DNA of 64,000 nucleotides from the IMG/VR virus record IMGVR_UViG_2910596823_000004; one strand, written 5' to 3'. How positions within the stretch are numbered: position 1 is the stretch's first letter; each line of letters opens with the position of its first letter. This document shows, in pieces, positions 3,108 to 58,134 of the stretch. This DNA is from a virus. Taxonomy: Duplodnaviria; Heunggongvirae; Uroviricota; Caudoviricetes. Below the pieces are notes generated by a model. The model had not been told where the DNA came from and made no database searches. It worked only from the letters and a program-made list of their open reading frames with translations. Both the position numbers and the translations under genes were made by a program.

Positions 3108-3302
3108 AGATCCCTCTAAAACACTCAGAGCGCATCCTTGCGCTCCTAAACAACTTGTTTAATTCAGTGCCTAACCAATTTGTTTTCTGGGTGTTTAAAA
3201 CCGGGCTGGGAAGTATTCAGAACCTGCTTCCGTATATATTTAATAAGTCACTTAGTATTTATATATACGGAAGCAGGCTCTCAAACTGGCTCCCAGACCG
3301 AC

Positions 3303-3569
3303 TTACATCACCAGTAATTTGGCTCTGGCACGACCTAACGTGGTCAGTCCCAGCGTGCGACGGTGGTAGCCGGAATCACCGCGCTGGCGGCACATTCCTT
3401 TCTCCACCAGCCCCTTTTTCACCAGTGCGCGGATAGAGAACTGCATACTCTGTTTGGTCGTTTTGTACGGCAGCACTTCAAGCAGCTCGTCCAGATCGAG
3501 CAGATGCCCACGCTCATGGCCTAAATTGATGGTTTTGATGATGTCTTTTTGTTTGTCGGTCAACGTCAT
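3303..3569 (-). CDS. Hypothetical small protein (88 aa), possibly winged-helix
   Basis: ORF in the same operon direction. It is followed by an 80-bp hairpin element. Confidence 0.4.
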   Translation of the reverse strand: MTLTDKQKDIIKTINLGHERGHLLDLDELLEVLPYKTTKQSMQFSIRALVKKGLVEKGMCRQRGDSGYHRRTLGLTTLGRARAKLLVM

Positions 3570-4478: not shown

Positions 4479-4729
4479 CTACGCTCGATATTGGCATTGA
4501 TGAAGTCCAGGCGAAGCGATTCCATCGCCCCAACCATGACGTATGGACGCCCACCGTTATGCCAGCAATCCAGCACACTGCCGTCGTTGTTGATCATCAG
4601 CAGTGCCAGGCTCTGGCTTTTGCCTTCTCTGGCGTACTGGAGTGCTTCTTCCAGCAGGCGGATGACTTCAACGTTGTTGTTGTCAGCCTCTTTCGATGGC
4701 TTCAGCTCTACGATCTTCAAATCAGGCAT
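4475..4729 (-). CDS. Hypothetical protein (84 aa)
   Basis: ORF overlapping its neighbours by 4 nt and 8 nt (operon coupling). Confidence 0.4.
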   Translation of the reverse strand: MPDLKIVELKPSKEADNNNVEVIRLLEEALQYAREGKSQSLALLMINNDGSVLDCWHNGGRPYVMVGAMESLRLDFINANIERR

Positions 4730-5360
4730 ATTCCACCTTCACGCGTTCTTTGTAGTGCTTGGTGATCTGCATATCCGGGCGCAGCGCGTTCTTCAGGTCT
4801 TCGTGGGTCGTCGCCACCATTACCGTCGCACCAACCTTACGGGCGGCACGCTGGAGGTTCGACGCCACAACCTGGGCGGTTACACGGTCGAGAACAGCGC
4901 CAAATTCGTCGGCAGCCCAGACTTTCGCGCCGGACTCGATCAGCTTGGCGATCTTGAGACGGTATTTCTGGCCGTCAGACATCTCGGATGGCTTACGCAC
5001 AAAGAGATAGGCGTCGTTCAATCCGGCCATAGACAGCAGCCCCAGCGCTTCGCTGGTGGTTTTGCCCAGCTGGTCAATGACGTTAACCTCATTGTCGAAG
5101 GCAAAGTCATCGATGGAGGCTACAGAAAGCCCTTCATCCTTCATCTGGCGTTGCAGCTCGCGCAGCACAACGGATTTACCGGAACCGGATTGGCCGGTGA
5201 TGTACACCACGTCGCCCTGCTTCACTTCCAGCTCCAGATTGTCGTAAAGCGTCCACTCTTTTTCGTCCAGACCAAGACCGAACGATTCGGCAATCTCCAG
5301 CGTGCGCGTGGTTTTGTTCACGCGGGTCTGAAACGATACGTTGATGGTGTATTTGCTCAT
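4722..5360 (-). CDS. Minimal ABC-type ATPase
   Basis: Walker A GQSGSGKS, ABC signature MSDGQKYRL, Walker B VWAADEF, H-loop TTHE. Its start overlaps the upstream ParB-like gene (ATGA). Confidence 0.6.
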   Translation of the reverse strand: MSKYTINVSFQTRVNKTTRTLEIAESFGLGLDEKEWTLYDNLELEVKQGDVVYITGQSGSGKSVVLRELQRQMKDEGLSVASIDDFAFDNEVNVIDQLGKTTSEALGLLSMAGLNDAYLFVRKPSEMSDGQKYRLKIAKLIESGAKVWAADEFGAVLDRVTAQVVASNLQRAARKVGATVMVATTHEDLKNALRPDMQITKHYKERVKVEYA

Positions 5361-6058
5361 GCGGCCAGCTCCCCAGAAGAAACTTTCTCCGCATACGCCA
5401 CGAAAGCGTCTACCCCGCTCTCTCCCGTGATTTCTTCCATGTGGGCAAGCAAATCCCCAACCACAATGGCAGAGCCAGCAGGGAGCGTTTTAAAACCCAA
5501 TACGTCGATGACGCGGACTTCTTCAGCGGCCACTTCGCGACTGATCTCGGTGTGCTCTTCTTTCTGGCGTTCCGTCTCTTCGCCCAGATCGAGCACCAGA
5601 GAGCCGGTTTCCATCTCTTCGGTCATGCTGCCGACAAGCACGTTCAGCTCGCGCTCTTCAAAACCGAAGACCTCGACGTCGCCCAGCACCAGGGATTCCA
5701 GTTCCTGCTGCAATTTGATGGCGTCGTAGTCAATACTGGCCAGGCGGTTGTCTTCCAGACGCTTCGCCTTCACTTCTTCTTCGCTCAGATCGTCGCGAAC
5801 GATGACCGGCACACGCTCCAGACCAGCCAGAAGTGCCGCCTCGCGACGACCGTGGCCAGTAATGATGACGTCGTGCTTGTCGACCGTGATCGGCTGGTCA
5901 AAACCGCGCTTTTTGATGGCGGCCGCCAGGTCGCGGATCTGCTGTTCGTCATGTTTTTTGGCGTTCATCTCATACGGGATAAGTTCTGCCGGGTTTCGAT
6001 AGACGATTTCAAAGTTTTTGGTCATTACATACGCTCCTTGTAGTAGTCGACCAGCCAC
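5357..6058 (-). CDS. ParB/Srx-like N-terminal domain protein
   Basis: ParB-NTD motifs (NPAELIPYEMNAK ... ITGHGRREAALLAG). The real start may be the internal ATG at 6025 (MTKNFEIV). Confidence 0.55.
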   Translation of the reverse strand: MAGRLLQGAYVMTKNFEIVYRNPAELIPYEMNAKKHDEQQIRDLAAAIKKRGFDQPITVDKHDVIITGHGRREAALLAGLERVPVIVRDDLSEEEVKAKRLEDNRLASIDYDAIKLQQELESLVLGDVEVFGFEERELNVLVGSMTEEMETGSLVLDLGEETERQKEEHTEISREVAAEEVRVIDVLGFKTLPAGSAIVVGDLLAHMEEITGESGVDAFVAYAEKVSSGELAA

Positions 6059-6723
6059 ACTAGGGCTTCCCCGGCGTTCTCAATTTCGTTACCGGTATTG
6101 ATCCCCTGCTCTTTGATGATGGTTTTGATGGTGTCGGCGACGCGATCTGACGCATCAAACGTCACCTTAAAGCGCATCGTCTGGTGTTCAGCGCCGACTC
6201 GCTCGGTTTTCTCGCGTTTGTCATCATCGACCGGCTCGTCATCGCCACGGGAGAGTGCTTCCAGCGCCTCAAGATCGATAACGGACGCTTTGGCGAGTGT
6301 TGCCGCCATCTCGTCGTCATACGGGGCGATATCGGACAACCGGTAGTCGATTTCAGACTGGATTTCTTCGATTAAGCGCTGCAAAGCGACCTGATCGTCT
6401 TCGCCGTAGCGCTCGTTATCGACGAGGGACATCTGCTTGGCCACCAGGTCGTTAATTTTGCCCACGGAGATGACGGGAACCGTTGAAATGCCCTGCTCCA
6501 TCGCGGCACGCCAGCGGTGTTCGCCACCGAGGATCTCAAAAATGCCCCCGTCCAGCTCCCGCGCCAGAATTGGCTTAAAAAAGCCCAATTTTTCGATAGA
6601 GCCTTTCAGTTTTTCGAAGTTTTGCGCTCCAACGGAGTTGGTATTCCAGGGATTCGGACGCAGGTTCGCGACTTCCACCTGCAGAATCGTAATTTTCACA
6701 TCCATAATTCTGATACAATCCAT
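6025..6723 (-). CDS. ParB/Srx-like N-terminal domain protein (second copy)
   Basis: LRPNPWNTNSV ... ILGGEHRWRAAMEQGISTVPVI, which resembles the ParB GERRxRA box. Confidence 0.55.
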   Translation of the reverse strand: MDCIRIMDVKITILQVEVANLRPNPWNTNSVGAQNFEKLKGSIEKLGFFKPILARELDGGIFEILGGEHRWRAAMEQGISTVPVISVGKINDLVAKQMSLVDNERYGEDDQVALQRLIEEIQSEIDYRLSDIAPYDDEMAATLAKASVIDLEALEALSRGDDEPVDDDKREKTERVGAEHQTMRFKVTFDASDRVADTIKTIIKEQGINTGNEIENAGEALVWLVDYYKERM

Positions 6724-15700: not shown

Positions 15701-15853
15701 TTTGTTTTCTTATGGGGGTAATTGGCTTAAATGCCTTGTCACGCCTGGGTTGGGGTAGGTTGGAGAGGTGGGGAAAGTGGCGATCAACGGACTCTTATAG
15801 AAATCCTCAATTTGTGACCGCCAATGTCAACGGATTGATTAAGCTAGTTGTGC

Positions 15854-17044
15854 TCAAACATCTCCGTTCTTAATCCACTGCCTGATTTCCTCGTCTCGTG
15901 CGACTTCTTTCTCGTGTTGGGTAACATACAGGTCGGGTAAAAGAGGTGGAGCGAATTCTGGCTCTGTCGAACACCACTTTTCATATGCCTCACGCATAGA
16001 TTTTTCTACATCCCAATGTTCCAACTCTTGGTATTCAATCGGCCAGTTATCCTGCAATTTCTTCACAGCTTTAGCCACGTCGTACCGGAAGTAAGGGTTA
16101 AGACCAATGAAATTACCAGCCAGCATGTCATCAACCTCCTTCACTCTGGCAATCTTGGAAAACTTACCAATAGCAATGTTGAGATCCCAATCAGACACGA
16201 ATAACAGCAGTGCGGCAAATGCCAGAAACTTAGCCTCTCCATATGCTCTGTCGCTAACCGTTTTTGTCTTAAACTCAATGTAATTGCTCATCACAAACCC
16301 AGTAAGCTTGTAAGTCTTATTTATCTCATCTTCCAAAAGCGATGGGTCGAGAATTGCACGGCCACGATTATTATCTATGTGTTCTAAGATTGCCGAAATG
16401 TCTCTATGGGATACTGAAATTTTACGCAATTGCTGGAGAGTCTTGATGTGAACTCTTAGCACCTCTTTGTCAATTGCACGAGACCAAGAAAAACCAGGCA
16501 CAGTAGCCTGAATGGGTGAGAAAGGCATAATATCCGGGTTTGTCCATGCCAAATATGATTCACGTAACCCGCTAATATAGTCAAGCCAATCCAAATGACC
16601 CTTTTCCAGCCATATTTCAAATGTGGAGTCCTTACGCTTATTGAAGAACCATTCCCTCATCTGCCACATTTTTTCTTGCGTAAAAATCCCTTCCTGTATG
16701 CCGGCGCATACCAGTTTTCGTATTACCTGCGAATACTTTGTTCGATCTTTCGTGAATGTGACAAGGTGCTGCCTTACCTCAGATGTTAACCTATCTCCGT
16801 AGAAGTCACATGATGGATGGTGGCCTTGGCCAGCTTCACCAGTAAATCTGAAATGCGCCTTCTTGTGATAACCATCATTCCTAGAGGCTCTAACAAACGA
16901 GCCACCTCCGACTTTGCAAATTGGACAGATGATGTCTTCACGAGCGACAGCATGAACTGAGCTGTCATCTAAATTTTTAAGTGCCAAGTACTGCTCGGGG
17001 TCGACTTCCTTTTGTAACGATTTCGAAAAAGCTGTATCCGTCAT
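15854..17044 (-). CDS. Hypothetical protein (396 aa) with N-terminal Cys/His cluster (CPICK...HHPSC)
   Basis: Long ORF. GC looks lower than the backbone by eye. Similar ~30-bp motifs lie at 15693-15722 and 17128-17160. Confidence 0.55.
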   Translation of the reverse strand: MTDTAFSKSLQKEVDPEQYLALKNLDDSSVHAVAREDIICPICKVGGGSFVRASRNDGYHKKAHFRFTGEAGQGHHPSCDFYGDRLTSEVRQHLVTFTKDRTKYSQVIRKLVCAGIQEGIFTQEKMWQMREWFFNKRKDSTFEIWLEKGHLDWLDYISGLRESYLAWTNPDIMPFSPIQATVPGFSWSRAIDKEVLRVHIKTLQQLRKISVSHRDISAILEHIDNNRGRAILDPSLLEDEINKTYKLTGFVMSNYIEFKTKTVSDRAYGEAKFLAFAALLLFVSDWDLNIAIGKFSKIARVKEVDDMLAGNFIGLNPYFRYDVAKAVKKLQDNWPIEYQELEHWDVEKSMREAYEKWCSTEPEFAPPLLPDLYVTQHEKEVARDEEIRQWIKNGDV

Positions 17045-17185
17045 ATTGTCCTCTTAAATGTCTCGTTCCAGTAATCGGTTGACTAAGGGGGCCGATCAAC
17101 TACTTAGCCAAGATATTATAGCTCTTGTTATTTATTTGTTTTCTTATATGTGTAAACAAATAAACGCTACAATTTCGACAATAAC

Positions 17186-18151
17186 TCAATTCCTATTGTG
17201 TCCTACTGAACGAGAAAGCAGTATGCGTTTCCAGTGTGATTCTCGTCGGTTTATCTCGCAGGCGTCACTGTTAATGTCCATGATTTCCAGAATAGAGAAC
17301 GTGACATTCTTGAGCCTTTCCTCATCGCCGGTTCCAAACGCTTCAATCAGGCCAGCATTCCCGCCGTGACCCGTTTTAAAGTAGGTCTTCCATCTTCCCC
17401 ATATTCCGCCTTTGCCGTTTGCCTGGCCAACATACAACTTCTCGCCATCAACATCAGTCAGCAGGTAGATGCCTTTGACAATACTCAGTGCAGTTCTCCA
17501 CGACTTTAACTCCTGCCGAATGATGGTTCCGAGACTGGCTCTGTCCAGAACTACGTCTTTGTAGCCGGGAAACTCGCCAAATGATAGACAGGATGGCGCA
17601 ATCTCAACGACTCGCAGTTTTCCGGCAAGAGTTTCGCCGTTCAAAATAGATCTGCGAGGACGCTCCGCACTGACATACAAACGTCCACGATATTCATCCA
17701 GTTCAGGAACAGGTGTCAGTTGATAGAGATAGTAGTCTTCGTTCCGGCCAGGTACTGCATGTGATGCTGTCAGAGAACACCCAACGTTGAGATAGGTGCC
17801 AGCATAGAGAAATCGCGCCTTATCTTCAGTCTGAATAAGAGAGACAACGTAAGTACGATTGAAGCTTTTCAGCTTCTGCAGGCATTGCCAGTCGTCGAAC
17901 GTCTCTTTCACGAACTCCTGTATCGGGTTTTCTTTATATTCGTTGGTGCTGGCTAAATGAATTTTGCTGTTATTTGGGGTCAGCTGCGGGTATAGCGACT
18001 GAAGGTACTGGAATAGTTCCATGCAGAAAATGTCCCTTATGAGATCGGCTCTGATATCTGGTATCTCACATGGAGAGCCGATCTGTCCACGACAAAAAAA
18101 AAGGCTTACCAGTCCCAGCCAGGTAATCCGTCCACCAGCTCGGCGTCGCAA
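17186..18151 (-). CDS. Protein with C-terminal GIY-YIG nuclease domain
   Basis: C-terminus reads KGIYLLTDVDGEKLYVGQANGKGGIWGRWKTY...NRRESHWKRIL (GIY...YVG plus conserved R and E). The N-terminal ~200 aa are unassigned. The true start may be the ATG at 18022 (MELFQYL). Confidence 0.55.
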   Translation of the reverse strand: MRRRAGGRITWLGLVSLFFCRGQIGSPCEIPDIRADLIRDIFCMELFQYLQSLYPQLTPNNSKIHLASTNEYKENPIQEFVKETFDDWQCLQKLKSFNRTYVVSLIQTEDKARFLYAGTYLNVGCSLTASHAVPGRNEDYYLYQLTPVPELDEYRGRLYVSAERPRRSILNGETLAGKLRVVEIAPSCLSFGEFPGYKDVVLDRASLGTIIRQELKSWRTALSIVKGIYLLTDVDGEKLYVGQANGKGGIWGRWKTYFKTGHGGNAGLIEAFGTGDEERLKNVTFSILEIMDINSDACEINRRESHWKRILLSRSVGHNRN

Positions 18152-18426
18152 TCGAAGTGAACCGCGTCAAAGCCGGCATCCACTATGGTCTGTATGTTAG
18201 AGATCGTCTCTTCGGAAATGCCATACTCACGCAGCTCTTCTTTCCAGTCATTCCCTCGCATTCCAGCACGAACAATCCAGCCGTACTGTGTACCGTGTAC
18301 CCAATTCAACCCGCGATCAGAAAGTGGGTCGAAGCAGGCAATGGGTAGCCGTTCTGAATCCGCTGCCGTTACGTGGGCGGTGCTGATCACCGCCGTCTTA
18401 TACGATTCGGTGATTTTCAGCATCAT
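18106..18426 (-). CDS. Hypothetical protein (106 aa)
   Basis: ORF. Its stop is followed by a T9 run and an imperfect hairpin. Confidence 0.45.
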   Translation of the reverse strand: MMLKITESYKTAVISTAHVTAADSERLPIACFDPLSDRGLNWVHGTQYGWIVRAGMRGNDWKEELREYGISEETISNIQTIVDAGFDAVHFDCDAELVDGLPGWDW

Positions 18427-24978: not shown

Positions 24979-25387
24979 TTGGATTCCATTCAGTGTCAGA
25001 AAGAGTTGCGGCTGGCTTGGCCAGCCGCCTTTTGGCGTTCCATCCTGGAACAGTACCTAACCGGTACTTCGTCATCCTGACGAACGGTAAGATACCTGAT
25101 TTAAAATGATAGGTAAATGCTTACTTATTACTTTGTGACAAAAATCCAATATCACGCTTGTGAGGCATATCAGATGCGGAGTAGACGGCGATCATAGTAG
25201 GCCGTTCATTAGATCGGCTTTGAGAGCGGATTGGACCAAACCCTAGATAGCGAGAGAGCACGGTGCTAATACCCGGTCACGTCACCAGCCAGGCGACAAC
25301 AGATGAGTTCATGGCAACATTTCGGAAGGTATCTTCGTATCATTATGTGGTTAAATATACATAATTTAACCCAATGGAATTTTAGCC

Positions 25388-25990
25388 ATGCTAGCCTTCT
25401 GGCACGAAAATTCAGACCTCATCTCCGCATTTTTAGCAGCTCTTTTAGGTGGCTTTTTCACGATGCTAGGAGTGACAACTCAGGTGAAACAGCAAGCAAA
25501 ACAGCAGGCAACAGCGGCCAGAGAGAAGCGTATAACAACGCTATTGGGTGTCAGAGAGGAAATAGACTCACTGATTAAACTGTATCAGGCCAGAATGGCA
25601 GAAGAACTCAAAAAATACGACCAGAACTCACCGTTCGATAACATTTTCCCCATTACTCAAAACTACTTCACGTTCTATGAAGCCAACTCGGCATCCCTAC
25701 CTGAAGTTCATAGAGAAACACTCTCAAAAATTGTGGCTTTTTATACAAGCGCAAGAAGCCTAATTGATTCCTATCGCGGTAATAATGCACTTATCGAACG
25801 GCTGGACTCCACGCAGGTTGCAAGTGACATTACTGGCAACAAAGAGCATCTTGCACACCTGAAAAGATACACCATCCTAGCCACAAAGTACGGCCGCGGA
25901 TTAATGATGATTCATGAAGAGGTCATGCTGCGCTATAAACAGGTTATAGAAGCCATCGATGGTGAAATCTCACAGTTACAATGCAGTTAG
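25388..25990 (+). CDS. Membrane-anchored hypothetical protein (200 aa; N-terminal TM)
   Basis: ORF on the opposite strand, inside an apparently lower-GC island. Confidence 0.45.
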   Translation: MLAFWHENSDLISAFLAALLGGFFTMLGVTTQVKQQAKQQATAAREKRITTLLGVREEIDSLIKLYQARMAEELKKYDQNSPFDNIFPITQNYFTFYEANSASLPEVHRETLSKIVAFYTSARSLIDSYRGNNALIERLDSTQVASDITGNKEHLAHLKRYTILATKYGRGLMMIHEEVMLRYKQVIEAIDGEISQLQCS

Positions 25991-26187
25991 CACTACAATC
26001 TGTCCGCATATTACTCGACGCGGTCGGGCTTAACGGGCTGAAGATCCACTGTGAGCGAGAAGATGACTGTTACGCGTTGAAGTTAATTGTATTACTTAGG
26101 TAAACATTATCATTTTCCAGACGTTAAGTTGTATCTTTGATAGGATTAAAAAAGGTATAGATAGCTTATGTTACTGAAGGAATAAAA

Positions 26188-26997
26188 ATGACAAAAATTA
26201 GTGAACGATGGAAGCACAATGGCATTACTAAAGGTTATTGCAATATTTGTGGAAAATTTGACTTGCTCACAAAGGATCATGTCCCTCCAAAGTGCGCCAT
26301 AACCTTAGGTCCTGTCCTTCAGAAAACAGTTAGCGAATTTTTTAATGCTCAGGAACCAGTTAAACCGTTAAATGCTAAAAACGGATCTTATTTCAGAACT
26401 ATTTGCAGTCACTGCAACAATAAGGTGTTAGGTGGGTTCGATGTTGCAATTGAAAATGTAGCAAACTCCTTTAAAGAACAGTTGAGTCAATATATGAATG
26501 GTACGAATGTATATCCATTCATTAGAATACCTTTTGATAGCATATCTTTCACTAAGGCTATGATTGGACACGTGCTATCAGCAACTTCAGTTGAAGATTG
26601 TAAAAAAGAACCCGTACACAGCCTCTTCTATACACCTTTAAAGGATTATGTTTTGGGTAATAATCCAAGTTTTGAGGAAACTCATGATATTTACTACTGG
26701 TTTTACCCACACAGAATGCACATATCCGCTCAAAGTGTAGCATTTATGAACGAAGGACATGTGGCATTTATTTGTGCTTTACATTTTTTCCCTATCGGGT
26801 TTATTATCACAATGAAAAATGAAGGAACATACCCTGCCCACTCAACAAAATTAGATCTTGAAGATAAATTCCTTACATTTAATATGACCTCTATAAATTA
26901 TGAGTATACGACATTTCCATTTGTAAATCTTAAGGGAAACCAAATGTATGCTATAAGCAACGGCCATACTTGTGTTAGTTATCCAATAATTAAGTGA
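26188..26997 (+). CDS. HNH-endonuclease-domain protein (269 aa)
   Basis: N-terminal CNICGKFDLLTKDHVPPK ... CSHCNN, i.e. a Cys pair, DH and a second Cys pair in an HNH-like arrangement. The C-terminal ~180 aa are unassigned. AT-rich codons. Confidence 0.5.
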   Translation: MTKISERWKHNGITKGYCNICGKFDLLTKDHVPPKCAITLGPVLQKTVSEFFNAQEPVKPLNAKNGSYFRTICSHCNNKVLGGFDVAIENVANSFKEQLSQYMNGTNVYPFIRIPFDSISFTKAMIGHVLSATSVEDCKKEPVHSLFYTPLKDYVLGNNPSFEETHDIYYWFYPHRMHISAQSVAFMNEGHVAFICALHFFPIGFIITMKNEGTYPAHSTKLDLEDKFLTFNMTSINYEYTTFPFVNLKGNQMYAISNGHTCVSYPIIK

Positions 26998-27656
26998 CAG
27001 CTAAATTATACAATCAACGCATGTTCACGTTTTACATATACCATCGATAATGTCCGCTCTTGGCACATTGAAGACATTACGATGCGCGATTTTTTCCCTC
27101 GCGCGTGTGCGCACGCGTGCGTGTAAATATTAAAAATTTTTATTAGAAAAGAAAAACTTACTTCCCAGAACAGGTTTTAATAAAACCTGAACTGAACGAA
27201 CGAAGTGAGTGAAGTTCACCTCGAACGAAGTGAGAGGTTGTCTTTTCAGGTAATACTCTCCCAGGGAGGTGAGTACAAAATCTCCTCACCAACCTGGTCG
27301 TTACATAACCTGAAAAGTTATGACCTAAGTCTACTGCCAGCTTAGGCTTGGGAAGTTATGGATGACAGCACCCCAGAACCGAGATCTTCCCACACTTTAT
27401 GAAGGGGAGTACTGGATTCAACCTCTCGAAATACTCCAGACTCGACAATCATAAAGTGACCCTTCTCTCCGCTCACTTTGGTTCCCCCTTCCCCAACCCC
27501 TAAGCGGTGCCGGTTCTACGCTGGTAGTGAGCTTTTTTAAACCTGACGCCAGTGACGCTATCCCCCACCCATCAGGTCGAGCTGCCGGAATCAATCCGGA
27601 AAGCGAGTGGATTTTATCACTGGCGATCTGCGTTTTAAATGGTAAGTACTTACCGA

Positions 27657-28089: not shown

Positions 28090-28707
28090 TTACGCTGCCT
28101 TTTTACGTGGTCTCTTCTTCCTGACAACATTGGCAGGATCATAACCACCCAGCTTTTTCATCACCGCCAGCGGTATCTTGCTGATGGTGTGCCCAGCTTC
28201 CTGACAGTAGCCACGGAAGATAAGCAACATGCTGCCACCAGGGTTGATGTTCACCTCCACCAGCCCAAGTTCAACATCCGGCTCAACGAACGCAACACGG
28301 CCGCCAGACAAGATGACGGTTTCGTTGGCGCATTCAGCCGCACGCTCGTACCACTGCGTATCGAGGGATTGTGGTATCAACATGACCGTCGTCACTCCAC
28401 GCGCCTGCTCGCGGATGGCTGCGTCTATCCAGGGGGTGATTTTGGAGTAGGGCGGGTTAAGGAACGCCACAGTGCCAGGTTCTCCCCAGCTGCACTTGAG
28501 CGCATCACGCTCAACACCGATAAAGTTCGGCAGGAGAGCATTATCTTTGTTGCAGGCGACGTCCACATCGAACTTTACGCCTATGTAACGTTGGATGGCG
28601 ACAAACAACCACTGCGGTGTGCGCCAAAGGTCGCGAAGAGAGGCATCACGCTCTCGCTTTTTGATTTTTTCGGCTGCGATCATTACTTTGCTTTGATAGG
28701 TAAACAC
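28090..28707 (-). CDS. dam: Phage Dam-type N6-adenine DNA methyltransferase
   Basis: LNPPYS motif and RDLWRTPQW as in the phage Dam MTase family. The real start is probably the ATG at 28683 (MIAAEK). Confidence 0.65.
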   Translation of the reverse strand: MFTYQSKVMIAAEKIKKRERDASLRDLWRTPQWLFVAIQRYIGVKFDVDVACNKDNALLPNFIGVERDALKCSWGEPGTVAFLNPPYSKITPWIDAAIREQARGVTTVMLIPQSLDTQWYERAAECANETVILSGGRVAFVEPDVELGLVEVNINPGGSMLLIFRGYCQEAGHTISKIPLAVMKKLGGYDPANVVRKKRPRKKAA

Positions 28708-32009: not shown

Positions 32010-32363
32010 TGGCTTACCTCATAGATGGTTGGTCGCTGGTGAGAATCTGCCAGCGCAGAACGCAGACGCGGATCATGAACCAGTGCGGCGATAAGTAAGT
32101 CGCCTTTGTGCTCTGCCAGCGTGCGCTTGATATGGGTTTCAAAACTGACACCGCGCGGAACAAGGTGGAGCCAGTCATAATCAATGCCGAAGTCCTTCAG
32201 CCAGCGTTTGGTTGGGCCTTCGAGCGCTTCCGGACGACTACTGATAAGCACCACTTCAGCACCGGAGCGAGCAAAACCACGCAACATGCGGCTGGTGTCA
32301 ACAACGGGTAAAAAGTGATCCACTTACCGCCACCACCAACGGTTTAATATTGATCCACCTTGT

Positions 32364-34193
<1,830 letters not shown>

Positions 34194-34381
34194 TAACCCC
34201 TGGATCAATTTTCAACCGCTGGGGTGGATCAGTTTTGCACCGTTGGTAACAGCTGGTGGGAAAGATGAGTTCATCACCGGCAATGAGAGCGCCTGCATCC
34301 GCATCAGACACTGCTTTGCGATGGCTGGCTCTCGCCAGCACACCTTCAATTTCACACAACACATACATCCCTCTGGCCATA

Positions 34382-44817: not shown

Positions 44818-45045
44818 GTGTCTTTTCCTTTGTGGTTATTTTGATACAGATATTAAGCGTGTTTAAGAGGCGATCAACCCAGACAACACGGCACATTAGA
44901 AAATCTACAGGCACATGATTATGACAAAATATATAAGTAAGTGAATACCTATTTTATGGAGCGGTAAAGATTTCTAAATGTTACAAGCCACTCTATAATC
45001 GCAGTCACTCAATGATGACAACCAAACGAAAAAGGAGAACGGACG

Positions 45046-45549
45046 GTGAAACGCGTAATTATTGGGACGATGGCCATTGCTCTGATCGGATGCGTGCCAA
45101 AACCGCCTCAAGATGAAAAGTCAGCTGGCGGGTACGTTGATATTTACTCCACTTCAAGCGTAGCTATTGCCCAGGACAGAGCCGACAAATTGTGTGGAAG
45201 CCATGCCTATTATGTCTCCAACGACAATGATTTAACCAAAGTCATGGGTAGATACGCGCCTTCATTCCCAAAAATCCGTTTCAACTGTGATCTTGAAATG
45301 GCCGCTTATCTCGGTAGCAAAGAGGCAAAGGAGATCAAGATGAAGCGCATAGAGGAAGCCTACAAGGAGATGTACAAGGCCCAATATGAGCTGAAAGAAG
45401 TGCGCCGTAAGAACGCTGATCCGAAGAAGCTGGAGTCCTACACAGAACGCGATCCGGACGGCACTATTCGCAGCTACAGCTTCTTGGACGGCAAGTCGTG
45501 CGAATCCATCGTATACCCAGACGGCACTGGCAAAACAACTTGCGATTAA
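45046..45549 (+). CDS. Putative lipoprotein (167 aa)
   Basis: GTG start after AAGGAGAA. Lipobox LIGC. Confidence 0.5.
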   Translation: MKRVIIGTMAIALIGCVPKPPQDEKSAGGYVDIYSTSSVAIAQDRADKLCGSHAYYVSNDNDLTKVMGRYAPSFPKIRFNCDLEMAAYLGSKEAKEIKMKRIEEAYKEMYKAQYELKEVRRKNADPKKLESYTERDPDGTIRSYSFLDGKSCESIVYPDGTGKTTCD

Positions 45550-45559
45550 TTCTTCAGAA

Positions 45560-45582
45560 GCACCTCATATGGGGTGCTTTTT
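45560..45582 (+). terminator. Rho-independent terminator
   Basis: gcacctcatatggggtgc followed by TTTTT. Confidence 0.55.
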
Positions 45583-46150: not shown

Positions 46151-46795
46151 TTAAAACGTCTCAGAGGGATTCTGACGCGCAACGCTGATGTCGATTACCC
46201 CAGCTTTTGGACGAGGGTCGACAAGATTCAACTCTTCAGCACTGTGATACTCCGTATCGAACTCCCGATCGACATGGCGAATGTAGATGGCCGTGAGAAG
46301 GCTGTCGTCGTTCAGGAAGTGTCCGTAGGATTTGCGGATCACTTCGCCAACCTTCTCGATCTTCTCTCCGCCCATACAGAGATGGTTAAACCGGCTGTGT
46401 TTTCGCAGCATCTCATCCACCGGGCCGGAGTAGACCTTATCGACTCTCCCGAATCGGATGATATTTCCAGTATCAGCCTCAACCAGACAAACGAGTTTGC
46501 CAGGCTCGACCCGGTCCCGCCATGTTACACCAGAGCGGAGTGTGTTGAAGTAGGGAGCGTCCAATCCGATGATCGGTTTACGAAATGCCAGCAGTGGCAC
46601 GTAACGTATGCAGCTGTTCAGGTGGAAGTGCGCACCGGCGTCGTGGAGTTTGAGCCGGGTTTCGTTAATCGGGCACTTCGACGCAATGCCGCACAGGTCG
46701 CAGAGCAACTTCTGTTTGTTCAGGCTAGTGTTCGATTCAATGGTGTAGGAGCCATCTTCAAGACGGCGAACCCAGCGCGTGCGTTTGAGATCCAT
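46151..46795 (-). CDS. Hypothetical protein (214 aa) with a CxxC cluster
   Basis: ORF. Confidence 0.4.
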   Translation of the reverse strand: MDLKRTRWVRRLEDGSYTIESNTSLNKQKLLCDLCGIASKCPINETRLKLHDAGAHFHLNSCIRYVPLLAFRKPIIGLDAPYFNTLRSGVTWRDRVEPGKLVCLVEADTGNIIRFGRVDKVYSGPVDEMLRKHSRFNHLCMGGEKIEKVGEVIRKSYGHFLNDDSLLTAIYIRHVDREFDTEYHSAEELNLVDPRPKAGVIDISVARQNPSETF

Positions 46796-46879
46796 AGTTC
46801 TTATTCAAATAGTTTTGTCCGGGGCAACGATAACTGACAAGGCGCACCGATGTTTGCAAATGCCTGTTTTACTTATACC

Positions 46880-47000
46880 CATTATTCACAGGCCCGATCC
46901 AATAATTAGATCCCCAGAGAGATCCTACAGAAGATCAAAAGAGATCCCCGATCGTCTCCAGCCGTTGCGGTTACTGGCCTGAGAGGGGGTTACTATCCAC
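46880..47000. repeat. GATC-rich origin-like segment (copy 1). A ~120-bp direct repeat of it lies at 47262-47350.
   Basis: Six GATC sites within ~90 bp. The second copy conserves CACAGGCCCGATCCA.TAATT.AGATCCC. Confidence 0.5.
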
Positions 47001-47525
47001 TATGGGGAGGAAAGTAACCTCTGTAGAGAGCATAATAACCGCTATGAAGAGCAAAACAACCTCTCTGGAGAGTGGTCGGTATCCACTGTAGTGAGTAGGA
47101 GACATTGTCTTAACTGGATAACTCAGTGCCTGTTTTTCTACGTCAGGTGGCTGATATTCATAGAGATGTTGGAAGTTTTGCGTTCAGGCGTGTTTGTTTC
47201 GACCACACATTATCCCCAGAAGGGGAGTGATGGCTGGTTTTGCAATTACCTGATTTTTATACACAGGCCCGATCCAGTAATTCAGATCCCAAAGAGAACC
47301 AAAGAGGCCCACAAAGACCCAAAAAGATCCCCGCACCCCGCAAACCGTTGTGCCACATGGCCTTAGAGGTGATCGATATCCACTATAGAGAGAAGATCAG
47401 CCACTATGAAGAGTAAACCAACCACTGTAGAGAGTAGAAAAACCACTATAGGCGGTAGGATAACCGCTGCGATGAGTGCTACTATCCACTGTAATCAGTA
47501 AAGGCCACCAAAGCGGTCGAATAAA
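46990..47525. repeat. Iteron array upstream of repA (about 10 copies in two clusters)
   Basis: Repeats of ~19 bp, consensus (T/C)ATCCACTGTAGTGAGTA, with variants CCACTATGGGGAGG, CCACTGTAGAGAGTAG, CCACTATAGGCGGTAGG. Confidence 0.65.
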
Positions 47526-47539
47526 AAGAGACACTTGGA

Positions 47540-48604
47540 ATGAGCGAAAACGGCAATAAAAACATAGCGATCGTTGAAGCATTCTCAGAAACAGACAAAA
47601 AGACCGGTGAAGTTGTTACGTTAGTTCCTAACACCAACAACACAGTTCAGCCTGTTGCTCTGATGCGTCTTGGTCTCTTCGTTCCGACGCTGAAATCGAC
47701 CGCCAGGGGCAGAAAGGGGCAAATGGTCTCTATGGACGCCTCTGCTGAACTCAAACAGCTGTCTCTGGCCAAAGCCGAAGGGTACGAGGACATAAGGATC
47801 TCCGGCGTTCGTCTGGATATGGATAACGACTTCAAAACGTGGGTAGGCATCATCCATGCGTTCGCCAAGCACAAGGTTGTTGGCGATACTGTCACGTTAC
47901 CGTTCGTCGAGTTCGTCAGGCTCTGTGGCATACCAACGGCCAGATCGTCCGCGAAGTTACGCAAGCGCCTGGACAGTTCTCTAACTCGTATTGCCACAAA
48001 CACTATCTCATTCCGCAGTAAAGGCTCTGATGAGTATTACGTGACGCACCTTGTGCAGACAGCAAAGTACAGCACAAAGAACGACACGGTCTCGCTGCAG
48101 GCTGATCCTAAGATTTTCGAACTCTACCAGTTCGACAAAAAGGTTCTTCTGCAACTCCGGGCAATTAACGAACTCTCCAGAAAAGAATCCGCGCAGGCGC
48201 TCTACACCTTCATCGAAAGTTTGCCACCTGACCCGGCACCAATCTCGTTGGCTCGCTTACGCGCCAGACTTAACTTAACCAGCCGCACCATTACCCAGAA
48301 CGCGACAGTCAGGAAGGCGATGGAGCAACTTCGGGAGATCGGCTATCTCGATTACACCGAAGTGAAGCGCGGCAGCTCGGTCTACTTCATCATCCACTAT
48401 AGGCGGCCGAAGTTACGCCCGGCATTGCCACCAGCTAAAGCTGCGCCGGAAGAACCAGAAGAGCAGGAAGATAGCTTGCCTGGTGATGATCAGGAGGACA
48501 TCATCGATGTTGTTCCTGAAGAAAAAGACGGTGAGATGGTCATGTTGAGCAAGGAAGAACTGGCGATTCTCGAAGAGCTACGCAAGGCAAAAGCTCGCAA
48601 ATAG
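47540..48604 (+). CDS. repA: Plasmid replication initiator RepA (iteron-binding, P1/F-RepE type)
   Basis: 354 aa bracketed by iteron arrays on both sides. Resembles Rep_3-type initiators by eye. Acidic C-terminus. Confidence 0.65.
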
Positions 48605-49165
48605 CTCAACCACTGTAGAGAGTAGAAAGGCTCACTATCCACTGTAGTGAGCCTTTTGTTTATCTGAAATCCGCTATCCACTGTAGTGAGTAACAACAAC
48701 CTAAGAGTAACCACTGTAGGCAGTGGCGCTCAAATAACGAAATAAATGTTAGTGGTTACAAACCCAGATGAAACAAGGGCTGCGAGGTTAGTGGTCACTG
48801 GGTATCTTGTTAAATCCACTCTCTATAGTGGTTATCGTTGTTCCCGTCGTTATTGGCTATCCACTATGGAGAGCAGAATCGGTTGGCCGGATTTGCTAAC
48901 CACTGTAGTGAGTAGATATCCGCTGAAAACAGTGACGGTTTACTCTCCATAGTGGATACCCGCTGGAGAACGCATTCCATCACTCTCTATAGTGGTTGTT
49001 GGCTGCTGATGAACGCCTGTTTACTCCCTACAGTGGATAGCGACGTCGATAATCGCCACTTTACTCACTACAGTGGATACCGGATGTCACGGCAGGCGTT
49101 TTACTCAATACAGTGGTTATTGGTCGGATACGCACGCGGTGAGCTGGCTACTCACCGCAGTGGTT
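48605..49165. repeat. Iteron array downstream of repA (about 13 copies, both orientations; incA-like)
   Basis: CCACTGTAGAGAGTAG, ATCCACTGTAGTGAG (twice), CCACTGTAGGCAGTGG, reverse-orientation TCTCCATAGTGGATACC / CTCTATAGTGGTTG / TACAGTGGATA, and others. Confidence 0.65.
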
Positions 49166-49172
49166 AGTGTTA

Positions 49173-49388
49173 TCAATGGATTTTCTTCAGCAGACCCCAG
49201 AGTGTCCCGGCCTTCGTCGTGAGCTTACCTGTTTCCGGATCATACATGCGCCATTCGCGACGCTGGTGGACAATGACACCGTCCTCACGTTCCAGACGCT
49301 CCAGCACGCCGGGTTGCTTAAACCCTTTGGCACGCCAGTAGCCGCTTGTTTTTTCGATTTCCAGACCTGCCAGTGTAACCGCCATCAA
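49173..49388 (-). CDS. Hypothetical protein (71 aa)
   Basis: ORF. Confidence 0.35.
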   Translation of the reverse strand: MMAVTLAGLEIEKTSGYWRAKGFKQPGVLERLEREDGVIVHQRREWRMYDPETGKLTTKAGTLWGLLKKIH

Positions 49389-49720
49389 CCAACCTCCTTG
49401 CAGTCATCGAAAAGGTAGCTGGCGTTCTTCGCGTGAACGCCGTAGACATCACTTGATTTGTTGTAAACGAACTTATCTTCACCCACGCCAGACAGTTTGC
49501 CGTTACGTTTGGTGAGATAGGGGGAAGACAGGACGCGATCATCGCGCACAACATAAAACTGTTCGCCGCTGTCCACAACCATCGCACCGTAGCTGGCTTT
49601 GACGACATTGCGGATCACGTCGTTTTTCACTTCGGCCACTGACATCTCACACTCATAGACGTGCGTGTCCGCGTAGACAGGGAGGGAGAGCAGCGCCAGA
49701 GTCAGGGCTATTTTCTTCAT
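49385..49720 (-). CDS. Secreted/periplasmic hypothetical protein (111 aa; signal peptide)
   Basis: MKKIALTLALLSLPVYA signal. Confidence 0.45.
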   Translation of the reverse strand: MKKIALTLALLSLPVYADTHVYECEMSVAEVKNDVIRNVVKASYGAMVVDSGEQFYVVRDDRVLSSPYLTKRNGKLSGVGEDKFVYNKSSDVYGVHAKNASYLFDDCKEVG

Positions 49721-55833: not shown

Positions 55834-56265
55834 TTAACGGGGAGAGTGGAAACGTTCGGCGCCCAAACGTTCAATCTCCACGATAGCCATTTTGGACGCC
55901 TGGACAATCATGTCGCGGCGGTGGGAGAAGGCGGCTACAGCGTGCTTGTACAGATCTGCAATGTGCCGGGCATCGTCGAGTTTCTGGCGCTTTGCGAGGT
56001 ATTGCGGGTTGGTTCTTACCTTCGCCTCCAGTACGGATTCATTGAACTTAATACCGTTCATACTCAGGTTCTTACGCTCATTGTCGTAGATTTTCGCCTC
56101 AATCGCATCGAGGGAGAGTTTTGCATCTGCGACTTCGCGTTCTGCCCGCGCCAGCTTAGAGCCGTACTCCATCAACAGGCGCGGTTGCTGACGCCAGACT
56201 TCCTCCAGATTGTCGCGGTCGAACTCCAGATCGGACATGATTTTTTCGTAGATATCGGTGCTCAT
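55834..56265 (-). CDS. Hypothetical protein (~144 aa; possible recombination-mediator role by position)
   Basis: ORF. Start chosen at MSTDIYEK. Confidence 0.35.
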   Translation of the reverse strand: MSTDIYEKIMSDLEFDRDNLEEVWRQQPRLLMEYGSKLARAEREVADAKLSLDAIEAKIYDNERKNLSMNGIKFNESVLEAKVRTNPQYLAKRQKLDDARHIADLYKHAVAAFSHRRDMIVQASKMAIVEIERLGAERFHSPR

Positions 56266-56473
56266 GGTGTTAATTACCTGCTTATTTATGTATATCAATT
56301 TTATCATGGAGGAATCAGGCGGAGGAGATTATGACATGATGAAATGGAGGTTATGAGATAGGTAAGCCAGTGAAAAATCAGGTGGTTCTGGTACTCTATG
56401 CCCCGTTAAAAGCTGGCCGTAGACAGCGTACGACAATGTGGTGGAGACACGGACGGATGGAATTCACTCGCCG

Positions 56474-56502
56474 TTGACAGTTGTCAACATCGAACATATA
56501 AT
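56474..56502 (+). promoter_or_regulatory. Near-consensus sigma70 promoter with a palindrome across the -35
   Basis: TTGACA (56474-56479), a 17-nt spacer, TATAAT (56497-56502). The palindrome GTTGACAGTTGTCAAC spans the -35. Confidence 0.55.
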
Positions 56503-56516
56503 ATGCCGGAGATAAA

Positions 56517-56747
56517 TTGTATCTGAAGAAACATACTAATAAGCACATTCAAGCGGCCATTGAATATGCTGTAACTCAAGGCTGGGTTTGGGTTCCACCA
56601 GGCGATTCTGCACACTGTTTTTGCAAATTGCGCTGCGGCAGTCCAGAAGGTGAACACCGAGATCACCAGATGAGCGTATGGTCGACACCGAGAAGTGCTG
56701 AAAACCATGCCAAGCAAATCATTCGTATGGTTGATCGCTGCGATTGA
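56517..56747 (+). CDS. Small protein (76 aa), possibly HicA-like toxin. Weak call.
   Basis: TTG start ~15 nt after the -10. Only loose GW...GS.H pattern similarity. Confidence 0.3.
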   Translation: MYLKKHTNKHIQAAIEYAVTQGWVWVPPGDSAHCFCKLRCGSPEGEHRDHQMSVWSTPRSAENHAKQIIRMVDRCD

Positions 56748-56828
56748 TTTTGCCCGGTAAGGAGTTGCTACAACAACTCCTTACCGAATCAACAAGAGAA
56801 TACTCTGAATACTAAACGAAGAGGTACT

Positions 56829-57386
56829 ATGGCGCTTTATAACTTCACTCTGACACTCTCAGGCGTAACGTATGAGACCGAAGGACTGGAAGACGCGCTG
56901 TACGGAAGCGGCTGTGACGATGCGCTGATTTGCGCATATGGAAACTCCGTATATGTTGAGTTCGACCGCGAAGCTGAATCGCTCGATGCAGCAATTGAAT
57001 CAGCGGTCGACAATATCGAATCAGCCGGAATCGGCGCTATTGTTGAATCTGTCGACTCTGCTCTTGTAGGCTTGAGCGACATTGCGGAAATTACTGAAAT
57101 GTCCCGACAGGCGATTGCAATGCTGAAAGATGGCACTCGCGGTAGCGGTGACTTCCCTTGCCCTGTCCAACGCATTAAAGGTCAGTCTCCACTCTGGGAT
57201 TGGGCTGATGTGGCCGAATGGTTACTAAAGAACGGTAGATTGAAAGATAATAGCGACCTGGTAATTAACGCTCGTGTGCTGAGTAAATGGAACCTTGCCT
57301 TACGTGCGAGCGCTTCAAAAGATTTTCAAGAAGTTGAGTCAATAGCGGCAGCACTAATCGAACGTCGACGTAAAACTATTTCATAG
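56829..57386 (+). CDS. Hypothetical protein with an HTH (EITEMSRQAIAML), possibly HicB-like antitoxin. Weak call.
   Basis: ORF downstream of the small protein. Confidence 0.4.
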   Translation: MALYNFTLTLSGVTYETEGLEDALYGSGCDDALICAYGNSVYVEFDREAESLDAAIESAVDNIESAGIGAIVESVDSALVGLSDIAEITEMSRQAIAMLKDGTRGSGDFPCPVQRIKGQSPLWDWADVAEWLLKNGRLKDNSDLVINARVLSKWNLALRASASKDFQEVESIAAALIERRRKTIS

Positions 57387-57451
57387 TCCTTACGCGTTTG
57401 GTCTTACTGCCCCTCCATTTAATATTAATAACGATGTGCAATTGAGGAATT

Positions 57452-58096
57452 ATGGCCCAAGACTCCAAACGTGGTAGTGCATTGGTTGAGGTTATAAAAT
57501 CTGATGATGTAACCGATCTGTTCAAGGATTACGGTGAGCTAGTTATTGACTCTGCCCTTGAATCGGGAACGCTTGAGTCGATTCCTTTACTCAATACTCT
57601 CGTAGGAATTTTCAAGACAGCCAGCTCAGTGCATGATCGTCGGTTCACGGAAAAGTTAATTCGTTTCATCTCTGGCTTCGCCGATCTAGACGATGCTACA
57701 CGAATAAATATGGCCAATCGGTTGAACGAAAATGACAAATTTGCGGGTAAGGCTGGCGACAGACTGATTGAAATCATTGACCGCATGGAGAGTGAAAATA
57801 AGCCAGAAATTGCAGCAGCATTCTTGAAAGCGTTTGCGTTTGAATACATTGATTTTATTACATTACGTCGCTTAATGGTTGCGCTTGAGCGTATCCCTTC
57901 CTTTGAGATTGATGAGTTAGATACTTTTTCCAAATACGATGAAAACAACCATCATCAAATATCAGATGAAGCGCTTTTACTCTCATTTGTTAATGCTGGG
58001 TTGGGGAAAAACAATGGCGGGTTTGACGGCGGTATTATTTTGCCGACAGATTTGTGCACAGCATTCGTTCGGTTCAAAGGCTTCAAACCGGAATAA
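57452..58096 (+). CDS. Hypothetical protein (214 aa)
   Basis: ATG after a GAGG RBS. Confidence 0.45.
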   Translation: MAQDSKRGSALVEVIKSDDVTDLFKDYGELVIDSALESGTLESIPLLNTLVGIFKTASSVHDRRFTEKLIRFISGFADLDDATRINMANRLNENDKFAGKAGDRLIEIIDRMESENKPEIAAAFLKAFAFEYIDFITLRRLMVALERIPSFEIDELDTFSKYDENNHHQISDEALLLSFVNAGLGKNNGGFDGGIILPTDLCTAFVRFKGFKPE

Positions 58097-58134
58097 TTTA
58101 GATCATATAACCCGCCGTTCGGCGGGCTTCTCTA

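Follow-up and report, generated by a model that had tools for sequence, protein, structure and literature searches.

Why should the genome of a tailed phage hold an initiator gene set in long tracts of repeated, non-coding DNA? The question is raised by the IMG/VR virus record IMGVR_UViG_2910596823_000004 (Caudoviricetes), of which the window, the whole 64,000-nucleotide stretch analysed here, carries such a locus between two minus-strand genes (46151-46795 and 49173-49388). The sole rightward open reading frame (ORF) of this interval is repA, and it is flanked by ~740 bp upstream and ~570 bp downstream of non-coding sequence rich in repeats. A preliminary description of the DNA had read the locus as a P1-type plasmid replicon inside a phage genome. 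Our direct evidence, drawn from sequence homology, the anatomy of the locus, its conservation and the occurrence of relatives as plasmids, makes us highly confident that the plasmid-prophage replicon of an SSU5_pHCM2-group phage-plasmid spans 46861-49167, and that it is a P1-like iteron replicon of the SSU5/pHCM2 type. Its class is P1/RepFIB-type, an iteron-controlled theta replicon.

The initiator provides the first line of evidence. The ORF at 47540-48604 (plus strand) falls exactly where a RepA-like initiator had been anticipated; it encodes a predicted iteron-binding replication initiator of 354 aa, and it is annotated repA in 339 plasmid records. The protein matches Pfam Rep3_N (WH1) with E=7e-11 and 43.1 bits (cutoff 22.4) and phrog_775 with E=1e-147, and its Rep3 core (WH1 and WH2) is contained within ~aa 40-288. 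By tblastn, aa 40-288 share 47.2% identity with P1/P7 RepA (E=1e-68 to 2e-72), and for a RepFIB-annotated RepA the identity is 45% across aa 6-288. Identity rises to 90.7% with the RepA of Cyrano/pLF82 and to 99.4% with that of SSU5, and is 51% with that of the Klebsiella phage pJN2-26. The comparisons with the P1, RepFIB and SSU5 initiators thus all speak for the anticipated identity. None of the NCBIfam models matched RepA. Beyond the region that aligns with P1 and RepFIB RepA, residues 289-354 form a 66-residue proline- and acid-rich C-terminal tail with a lysine-rich, helix-like end. Several RefSeq phage records, and phrog_775 itself, call homologues of RepA 'replication helicase', a mislabel for a Rep3-type winged-helix initiator that is propagating through databases.

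The repeats around repA provide the second line. Iterons were sought by a mismatch scan with the 18-mer TATCCACTGTAGTGAGTA and by a 19-column position weight matrix (PWM) trained on the iterons themselves. Both scans place 11 copies upstream of repA, all on the plus strand; the downstream array, between 48606 and 49167, adds 13 strong iterons and a weak one. The PWM counts fit the earlier estimate of about 10 and about 13. The accompanying statement that the copies lie in both orientations holds for the downstream array and fails for the upstream copies. All 24 strong iterons score at least 17.6 bits and lie within 2.2 kb, while the best site elsewhere in the 64 kb reaches 16.5 bits. Because the PWM is self-trained, a count with the degenerate pattern TAWCCACTRTAGWGAGTA served as an independent test: with at most three mismatches it gives 19 matches, all in 46994-49166, compared with a mean of 0.14 in shuffled sequence, where none of 100 shuffles reaches 19. 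The resemblance that had been noted between iteron and DnaA box is real, as iterons of the TATCCACT type (CTATCCACT) stand two mismatches from TTATCCACA; better boxes are found at the left ends of the two upstream modules described below. Two iteron-like sites lie apart from the arrays, and both may be chance: TCATCCACTATAGGCGGCC at 48390-48408 (11.2 bits), inside the part of repA that codes for WH2, and GCATCCACTATGGTCTGTA at 18176-18194, the 16.5-bit site, 29 kb away from the replicon.

The relatives of the locus provide the third line. Over a 2.4-kb region that spans the replicon, identity is 97.2% with Salmonella phage SSU5, in which the ORF is annotated 'putative replication protein RepA'; 99.7% with three 109,917-bp circular plasmids of Salmonella enterica (the Salmonella Tennessee plasmid being typed IncFIB); 97.8% with 106.7-kb Salmonella plasmids, which by their size may be pHCM2; and 95.8% with Yersinia pestis pMT1. 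The 106.7-kb plasmids and pMT1 bear the PlasmidFinder/MOB-suite type IncFIB. The 339 matching plasmid records come from Escherichia, Enterobacter, Yersinia, Salmonella and Citrobacter, are mostly non-mobilizable, and for the most part measure ~105-120 kb; those inspected are typed IncFIB. Over a wider span, the 22 kb around the replicon are 98-98.7% identical to many members of the SSU5_pHCM2 group. This group belongs, with pMT1, pSLy3 and pKpn, to the SSU5 supergroup of phage-plasmids (Pfeifer et al. 2021, PMC7969092), and SSU5 itself is counted among the established phage-plasmids in the same work. The kinship to SSU5/pHCM2, which had been put forward earlier, is therefore borne out by the 97.2% identity and by the published group, and so, together with the collinear circular plasmid discussed next, is the phage-plasmid reading built upon it.

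Could the source of the window instead be a prophage integrated in a chromosome, or a chromosomal island, with a plasmid-type rep gene by chance? A preprint describes Salmonella Agona genomes with a chromosomally integrated plasmid bearing SSU5-like rep/par genes (bioRxiv 10.1101/2025.09.12.675607), and the window does hold an insertion of the IS21 family. Yet those integrated Agona elements are without phage structural genes, and the window has a terminase. It is collinear, at 96-99.5% identity, with a complete circular 109.9-kb plasmid over ~57 of its 64 kb, with no chromosomal flanks. The search for a phage integrase, on which the preliminary description made its interpretation depend, found no tyrosine or serine integrase among the scanned ORFs or in the collinear annotation, and the lone 'integrase core' match is the IS21-family transposase. 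We regard an integrated source as highly improbable.

We give equally little credit to a second alternative, in which the replicon is a relic: the element would be a purely lytic or virulent phage that could no longer be maintained as a plasmid through its RepA-iteron region. In favour of this alternative, SSU5 was obtained as a plaque-forming phage, its deposited phage genome is linear, and the window taken by itself does not demonstrate a circular plasmid. Against it, repA is intact and its product all but identical to that of SSU5; the non-coding modules are under visible constraint; and the same region recurs in the 339 plasmid records with the size and mobility profile given above. pMT1 and the 106.7-kb Salmonella plasmids, all with this replicon, are stably maintained in the plasmid form. 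Cyrano/pLF82, in which the layout of the replicon is the same as in the window, is maintained at ~5.5 copies per cell and yields ciprofloxacin-inducible virions (PMC9928086). The cloned replicon of pMT1 is entered in a table of PMC6199537 as curing pMT1 by incompatibility (Ni et al. 2008).

Some points weigh against the identification of the locus as a working P1-like replicon. The Rep3_C (WH2) match of RepA scores 21.0 bits, marginally under the Pfam cutoff of 21.1. No PDB sequence matched RepA at E<=0.01, RepE, pi and pPS10 RepA being too distant for phmmer; since there is no sequence-detectable PDB relative, the fold is assigned through Pfam and through the P1 homology. The window covers 64 kb of an element of ~110 kb, and circularity and phage completeness are taken from the near-identical records. 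The element also encodes a phage-type Dam (N6-adenine) methyltransferase of its own (28090-28707, minus strand; Pfam PF05869, E=5e-37; phage N-6-adenine-methyltransferase in the collinear plasmid), which is a possible candidate supplier of the methylation of the origin GATC sites.

In SSU5 the genes that flank the replicon are the same, with an ASCH-like gene upstream and a Cra-like gene downstream, together with SbcCD-like, nrdAB, RecA-like and Pol III alpha genes; SSU5 differs by one extra 41-bp downstream iteron unit (14 strong iterons, compared with 13 here). With respect to the deposited members of the group, the window differs by its IS21-family insertion and a few other indels. pMT1 (pFra) has an identical module and iteron layout, and its identity covers all of the 2.4 kb, in one block or two, as is also seen with the 106.7-kb plasmids. 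It differs by its other cargo, and the gene upstream of the replicon encodes an ABC transporter substrate-binding protein. We take pMT1 to carry a parABS system of the P1/P7 type.

What does the interval upstream of repA contain? It presents two origin-like modules in tandem. The distal module opens with two abutting DnaA-box-like 9-mers at 46873-46890 (plus strand), TTATACCCA with two mismatches to TTATCCACA and TTATTCACA with one mismatch, the latter fitting TTWTNCACA. This pair aligns with the annotated tandem DnaA site of the P1 origin, oriR; Cyrano reads TTATCCCAGTTATCCAC at its position. Next to it, at 46896-46953, is a cluster of six GATC (Dam) sites (starts 46896-46950; spacings 13, 12, 12, 10 and 7 bp), the densest in the 64 kb, which elsewhere hold at most three per 60 bp. 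The tract corresponds by homology to the five Dam sites annotated in P1 oriR, and all six sites are kept in SSU5, pMT1, and the E. coli, Shigella, Buttiauxella and Cyrano relatives. The six sites had been reported as spread over ~90 bp; the number is right and the span is 58 bp. Five 19-bp iterons complete the module at 46993-47097 (plus strand), with starts at 46993, 47014, 47035, 47056 and 47079, a phasing of 21-21-21-23 bp and PWM scores of 18.7-28.2 bits.

The proximal module follows after a spacer at 47098-47232, which is poorly conserved (64% in the most diverged lineage) and has one DnaA-box-like 9-mer, TTATCCCCA, at 47210. It comprises a DnaA box, TTATACACA, at 47257 and a diverged GATC tract, the two together spanning 47257-47329 (plus strand). 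Three GATC remain in this tract, at 47271, 47285 and 47326, and GAACC, GGCCC and GACCC are read at the positions where the others have been lost. Two further GATC are found where the proximal iterons begin, at 47371 (before iteron 1) and at 47395 (between iterons 1 and 2). The six proximal iterons (47376-47500, plus strand; starts 47376, 47397, 47418, 47439, 47460 and 47482) keep a 21-bp phasing with a last step of 22, and the set ends 39 bp upstream of the ATG of repA. The duplication of the GATC block ~380 bp apart that had been noted is thus real, with an offset of 375 bp and ~69% identity between copies over the origin core; what had escaped notice is that the second copy is degenerate (three of six GATC) and that the whole origin-like module is doubled.

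The two modules have been kept together. The same 5+6 iterons, 6+3 GATC and offsets to the ATG are found in seven elements (the window, SSU5, pMT1, Cyrano, and E. coli, Buttiauxella and Shigella plasmids), even at an overall identity of 83%. In the most diverged lineage both modules are 80-88% conserved, compared with 64% for spacer and leader, and among relatives the distal iteron set is 87-100% conserved, compared with 64% in the adjoining spacer. Because they are better conserved than the spacer and the leader, we take both modules to be under selection.

Comparison with P1 provides the reference for this layout. The P1 record AF234172 gives, in order, a tandem DnaA site, five Dam sites, five iterons (incC, with PrepA), repA, nine incA iterons and parAB; in the extracted P1 sequence the incC iterons start at 2245, 2266, 2287, 2308 and 2330, with a 21-bp phasing. 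The incC-repA-incA arrangement claimed for the window is found as described, with origin iterons, repA, and a control array that runs from the stop codon. In each of the two upstream modules the left part aligns with P1 oriR base by base, DnaA boxes included; in the distal one, TTATACCCA and TTATTCACA fall on P1 TTATCCACATTATCCAC, and the GATC fall on the Dam sites with similar spacing. The distal set has the five iterons of incC in the same phasing, and the P1 incA likewise starts at the repA stop, with three direct and then six inverted iterons at a spacing of ~30-40 bp. The differences are no less clear. The iterons are unrelated, TAWCCACTRTAGWGAGTA here and GATGTGTGCTGGAGGGAAA in P1. The window has two origin-like modules where P1 has one, 11 upstream iterons where P1 has five, and 13-14 control iterons where P1 has nine. 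RepA has the 66-aa C-terminal tail and ~39 N-terminal residues that do not align with P1 RepA. The DnaA-box-like 9-mers that P1 has between its iterons and repA are without counterpart. No parAB stands beside the array; a Cra-like ORF of the opposite strand comes next, and ParB-like genes lie ~41 kb away. The backbone is that of an SSU5-type siphovirus, whereas P1 is a P1-type myovirus. Because it has two modules and no adjoining parAB, the replicon constitutes a lineage distinct from the P1 replicon, though P1-like in its working.

Two further replicons help to place this core. SJ46, a P1-like phage with a RepFIB-type replicon, has a homologous origin core followed by five 21-bp-phased iterons, and its downstream copies are first direct and then inverted; it differs by a single origin module, by its iteron (TGTTGACTATACGCGA) and by a downstream array of six copies. 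The Klebsiella phage pJN2-26, an SSU5 relative of the pKpn/IncpKPHS1 type, shares the gene neighbourhood of the window and a GGTTAGTG..CACTGG island that is treated below. Its origin core is near-identical to that of P1, with six GATC in the tract and a further one that adjoins iteron 1 (132 bp hold seven in all), followed by five phased iterons. It differs by a single origin module, by the iteron TATGCTGTCAGCGGT and by eight downstream iterons in one orientation. As judged from their alignments, P1, SJ46, pJN2-26 and the window each join a homologous, putative host-factor core to a RepA-iteron pair that is specific to the lineage.

Which of the two modules would then be the origin? We assign this role to the distal module, and regard the proximal one as a derived copy that would serve mainly as repA operator and as a supply of extra RepA-binding, or handcuffing, sites; our confidence in this division of roles is evenly balanced. 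The distal module is favoured because its core is nearer to the single cores of P1, pJN2-26 and SJ46 (68-79% identity, compared with 62-65% for the proximal core) and because it has the tandem DnaA pair, six GATC and exactly five iterons. The proximal iteron region, by analogy with P1, is presumed to be the promoter/operator site of repA. The hexamer TAGGAT at 47456-47461 is the same as the annotated -10 hexamer of P1 PrepA and stands at the aligned position.

Three observations count against this assignment. A simple consensus scan and a more lenient one both failed to bring out a convincing sigma-70 promoter of repA. It is the proximal module that lies directly upstream of repA, where P1, pJN2-26 and SJ46 have their lone module. 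Its DnaA box is a perfect TTATCCACA in the E. coli/Shigella/Cyrano lineage, where a strict scan for TTWTNCACA finds no box in the distal module. Given this ancestral position and the better box in the E. coli lineage, the proximal module could equally be the origin, or both modules could fire. The roles would then be reversed or shared, with 47257-47500 as the functional origin and the distal module as a second origin or as an additional incompatibility or copy-control array. The conservation of the proximal module (85-88% in the diverged lineage) fits this alternative as well. Against it stand the loss of three of the six proximal GATC in all lineages, the greater distance of the proximal core from the P1, pKpn-type and RepFIB-type cores, and the retention of the P1-like tandem DnaA pair and of exactly five iterons by the distal module. 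We hold reversed or shared roles to be possible, though somewhat unlikely, and keep the distal module as the preferred origin. In SJ46, two short segments of the left part of the origin (1448-1524 of the SJ46 locus) recur at an offset of 349 bp within the N-terminal coding region of repA (1797-1873), at 72-79% identity; this similarity may be the faint trace of an old SSU5-like tandem duplication, or chance.

How is the downstream side built? The control array begins 2 nt past the stop codon of repA and consists of two parts. Part A (48606-48725, plus strand) holds four iterons oriented like those of the origin, starting at 48606, 48635, 48674 and 48707. Part B (48817-49167, mixed strands) holds nine strong iterons and the weak one: 48817 (minus), 48857 (plus), 48896 (plus), 48916 (plus, weak), and then six inverted copies at 48941, 48981, 49022, 49062, 49102 and 49149 (minus) with a spacing of ~40 bp. 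Among relatives the number of downstream copies varies from 12 to 16 through gain and loss of ~40-bp units. Directly after repA, at 48625-48657, there is a terminator-like hairpin with a 14-bp stem and a T-run. The second downstream iteron lies within this stem-loop, so that termination and the binding of RepA could disturb one another. The Buttiauxella relative has lost this hairpin by deletion.

Between the two parts of the array, at 48745-48805, is a conserved island that is not made of iterons. It has the direct repeats TGTTAGTGGTTAC and GGTTAGTGGTCACTGGG, 39 bp apart, and the window has no other copy of its motif. The island is 89% identical in the most diverged lineage, compared with 85% for repA. 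It recurs in Klebsiella pJN2-26 (~3299-3350 of its locus sequence), inverted and outside the array, and is absent from the replicon loci of P1 and SJ46. On neither strand does RNA folding of the island give better values than shuffled sequences (z=-0.9 and -0.7). An Rfam search of 46600-49400, on both strands and at E<=1, returned no match, and there is thus no sign of control by an antisense RNA in this interval. Half-iterons were considered as an explanation of the island and rejected as the main one, as the motif persists in pJN2-26, where the iteron recognised by RepA is an unrelated one. The island is probably bound by a factor other than RepA.

How the replicon might work can be proposed from the P1 paradigm, whose genetics is the work of Chattoraj, Abeles, Austin and Brendler; every biochemical step that follows is carried over from P1. 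RepA monomers would bind the 21-bp-phased iterons of the origin, and host DnaA would bind the boxes at the left end of the module. The adjoining GATC tract, once fully Dam-methylated, would open and allow the host replisome to load, and after firing SeqA would sequester the hemimethylated tract. RepA on the iterons next to repA would repress the repA promoter. The downstream array would titrate RepA and handcuff the origin, which would hold the element at few copies per cell; the ~5.5 copies of Cyrano agree with this proposal. Lytic growth would probably proceed through the element's own phage replication genes (Pol III alpha, helicase and others), and partition would probably be served by the distant ParB_N and ABC-ATPase genes.

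How much of this is new? The identity of the replicon is already known, with near-identical sequences deposited and annotated, an IncFIB typing entry and a published phage-plasmid family; the SSU5 replication gene is already IncFIB in plasmid-typing tools (bioRxiv 10.1101/2025.09.12.675607). The window itself is a slightly new variant: an identical PLSDB record is absent, and the best match (98.7% over 91% of the 22 kb around the replicon) is without the IS21-family insertion. No account of the two-module origin, the variable array or the island was found in the searchable literature on SSU5/pHCM2 iterons and origins; older papers on pMT1 and pHCM2 may contain these. The base-level map, with its two modules, its control array of variable length and its conserved island, is a modest addition to the existing annotation. 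That the fixed tandem duplication of the oriR core, with divided roles for its modules, and the island at 48745-48805 are undescribed functional control elements is a tentative suggestion that we consider rather doubtful; either of them could be linked to switching between the plasmid and lytic modes of replication. The interest of the locus is also practical. With the replicon in 339 plasmid records, phage-plasmids of the SSU5 type occur widely across Salmonella, E. coli, Enterobacter, Citrobacter and Yersinia, and resistance genes can be carried by phage-plasmids as a class. The anatomy of the replicon is useful for typing, for incompatibility-based curing and for understanding copy-number control in lysogeny.

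The remainder of the window is that of a phage with its own DNA metabolism. The terminase large subunit is encoded at 1207-2463 (from the ORF domain scan and the collinear annotation), and the ORFs of the window and of the collinear plasmid, which has phage structural genes as well, also encode a DEAD-box helicase, dihydrofolate reductase (DHFR), thymidylate synthase, nrdAB, an SbcCD-like nuclease, a RecA-like recombinase and Pol III alpha. The earlier remark that terminase and a set of DNA-metabolism genes share the contig with the replicon is thereby confirmed. A candidate partition locus lies at 4722-6723 (minus strand) and comprises two paralogous ParB_N-domain proteins (6025-6723 and 5357-6058) and an ABC-type ATPase (4722-5360). 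It is unusual in having an ATPase of the ABC-transporter type in place of a ParA/SopA Walker ATPase, and in its distance of ~41 kb from the replicon.

The IS21-family insertion (32297-34252, minus strand) encodes an IstA-like rve transposase of 340 aa (33143-34165) and an IstB of 260 aa (32364-33146; IstB_IS21, E=8e-111). It lies between the DHFR and thymidylate-synthase genes; neither the collinear Salmonella plasmid nor the best PLSDB matches have it. Four more segments, 15839-17190, 25193-27050, 44959-45568 and 56256-58133, have no counterpart in the closest complete plasmid, NZ_CP033346, and the segments of this kind are accessory or variable cargo of the isolate. The ORFs at 15854-17044, 25388-25990, 26188-26997, 56829-57386 and 57452-58096 gave no Pfam match; 45046-45549 corresponds to SSU5_072.

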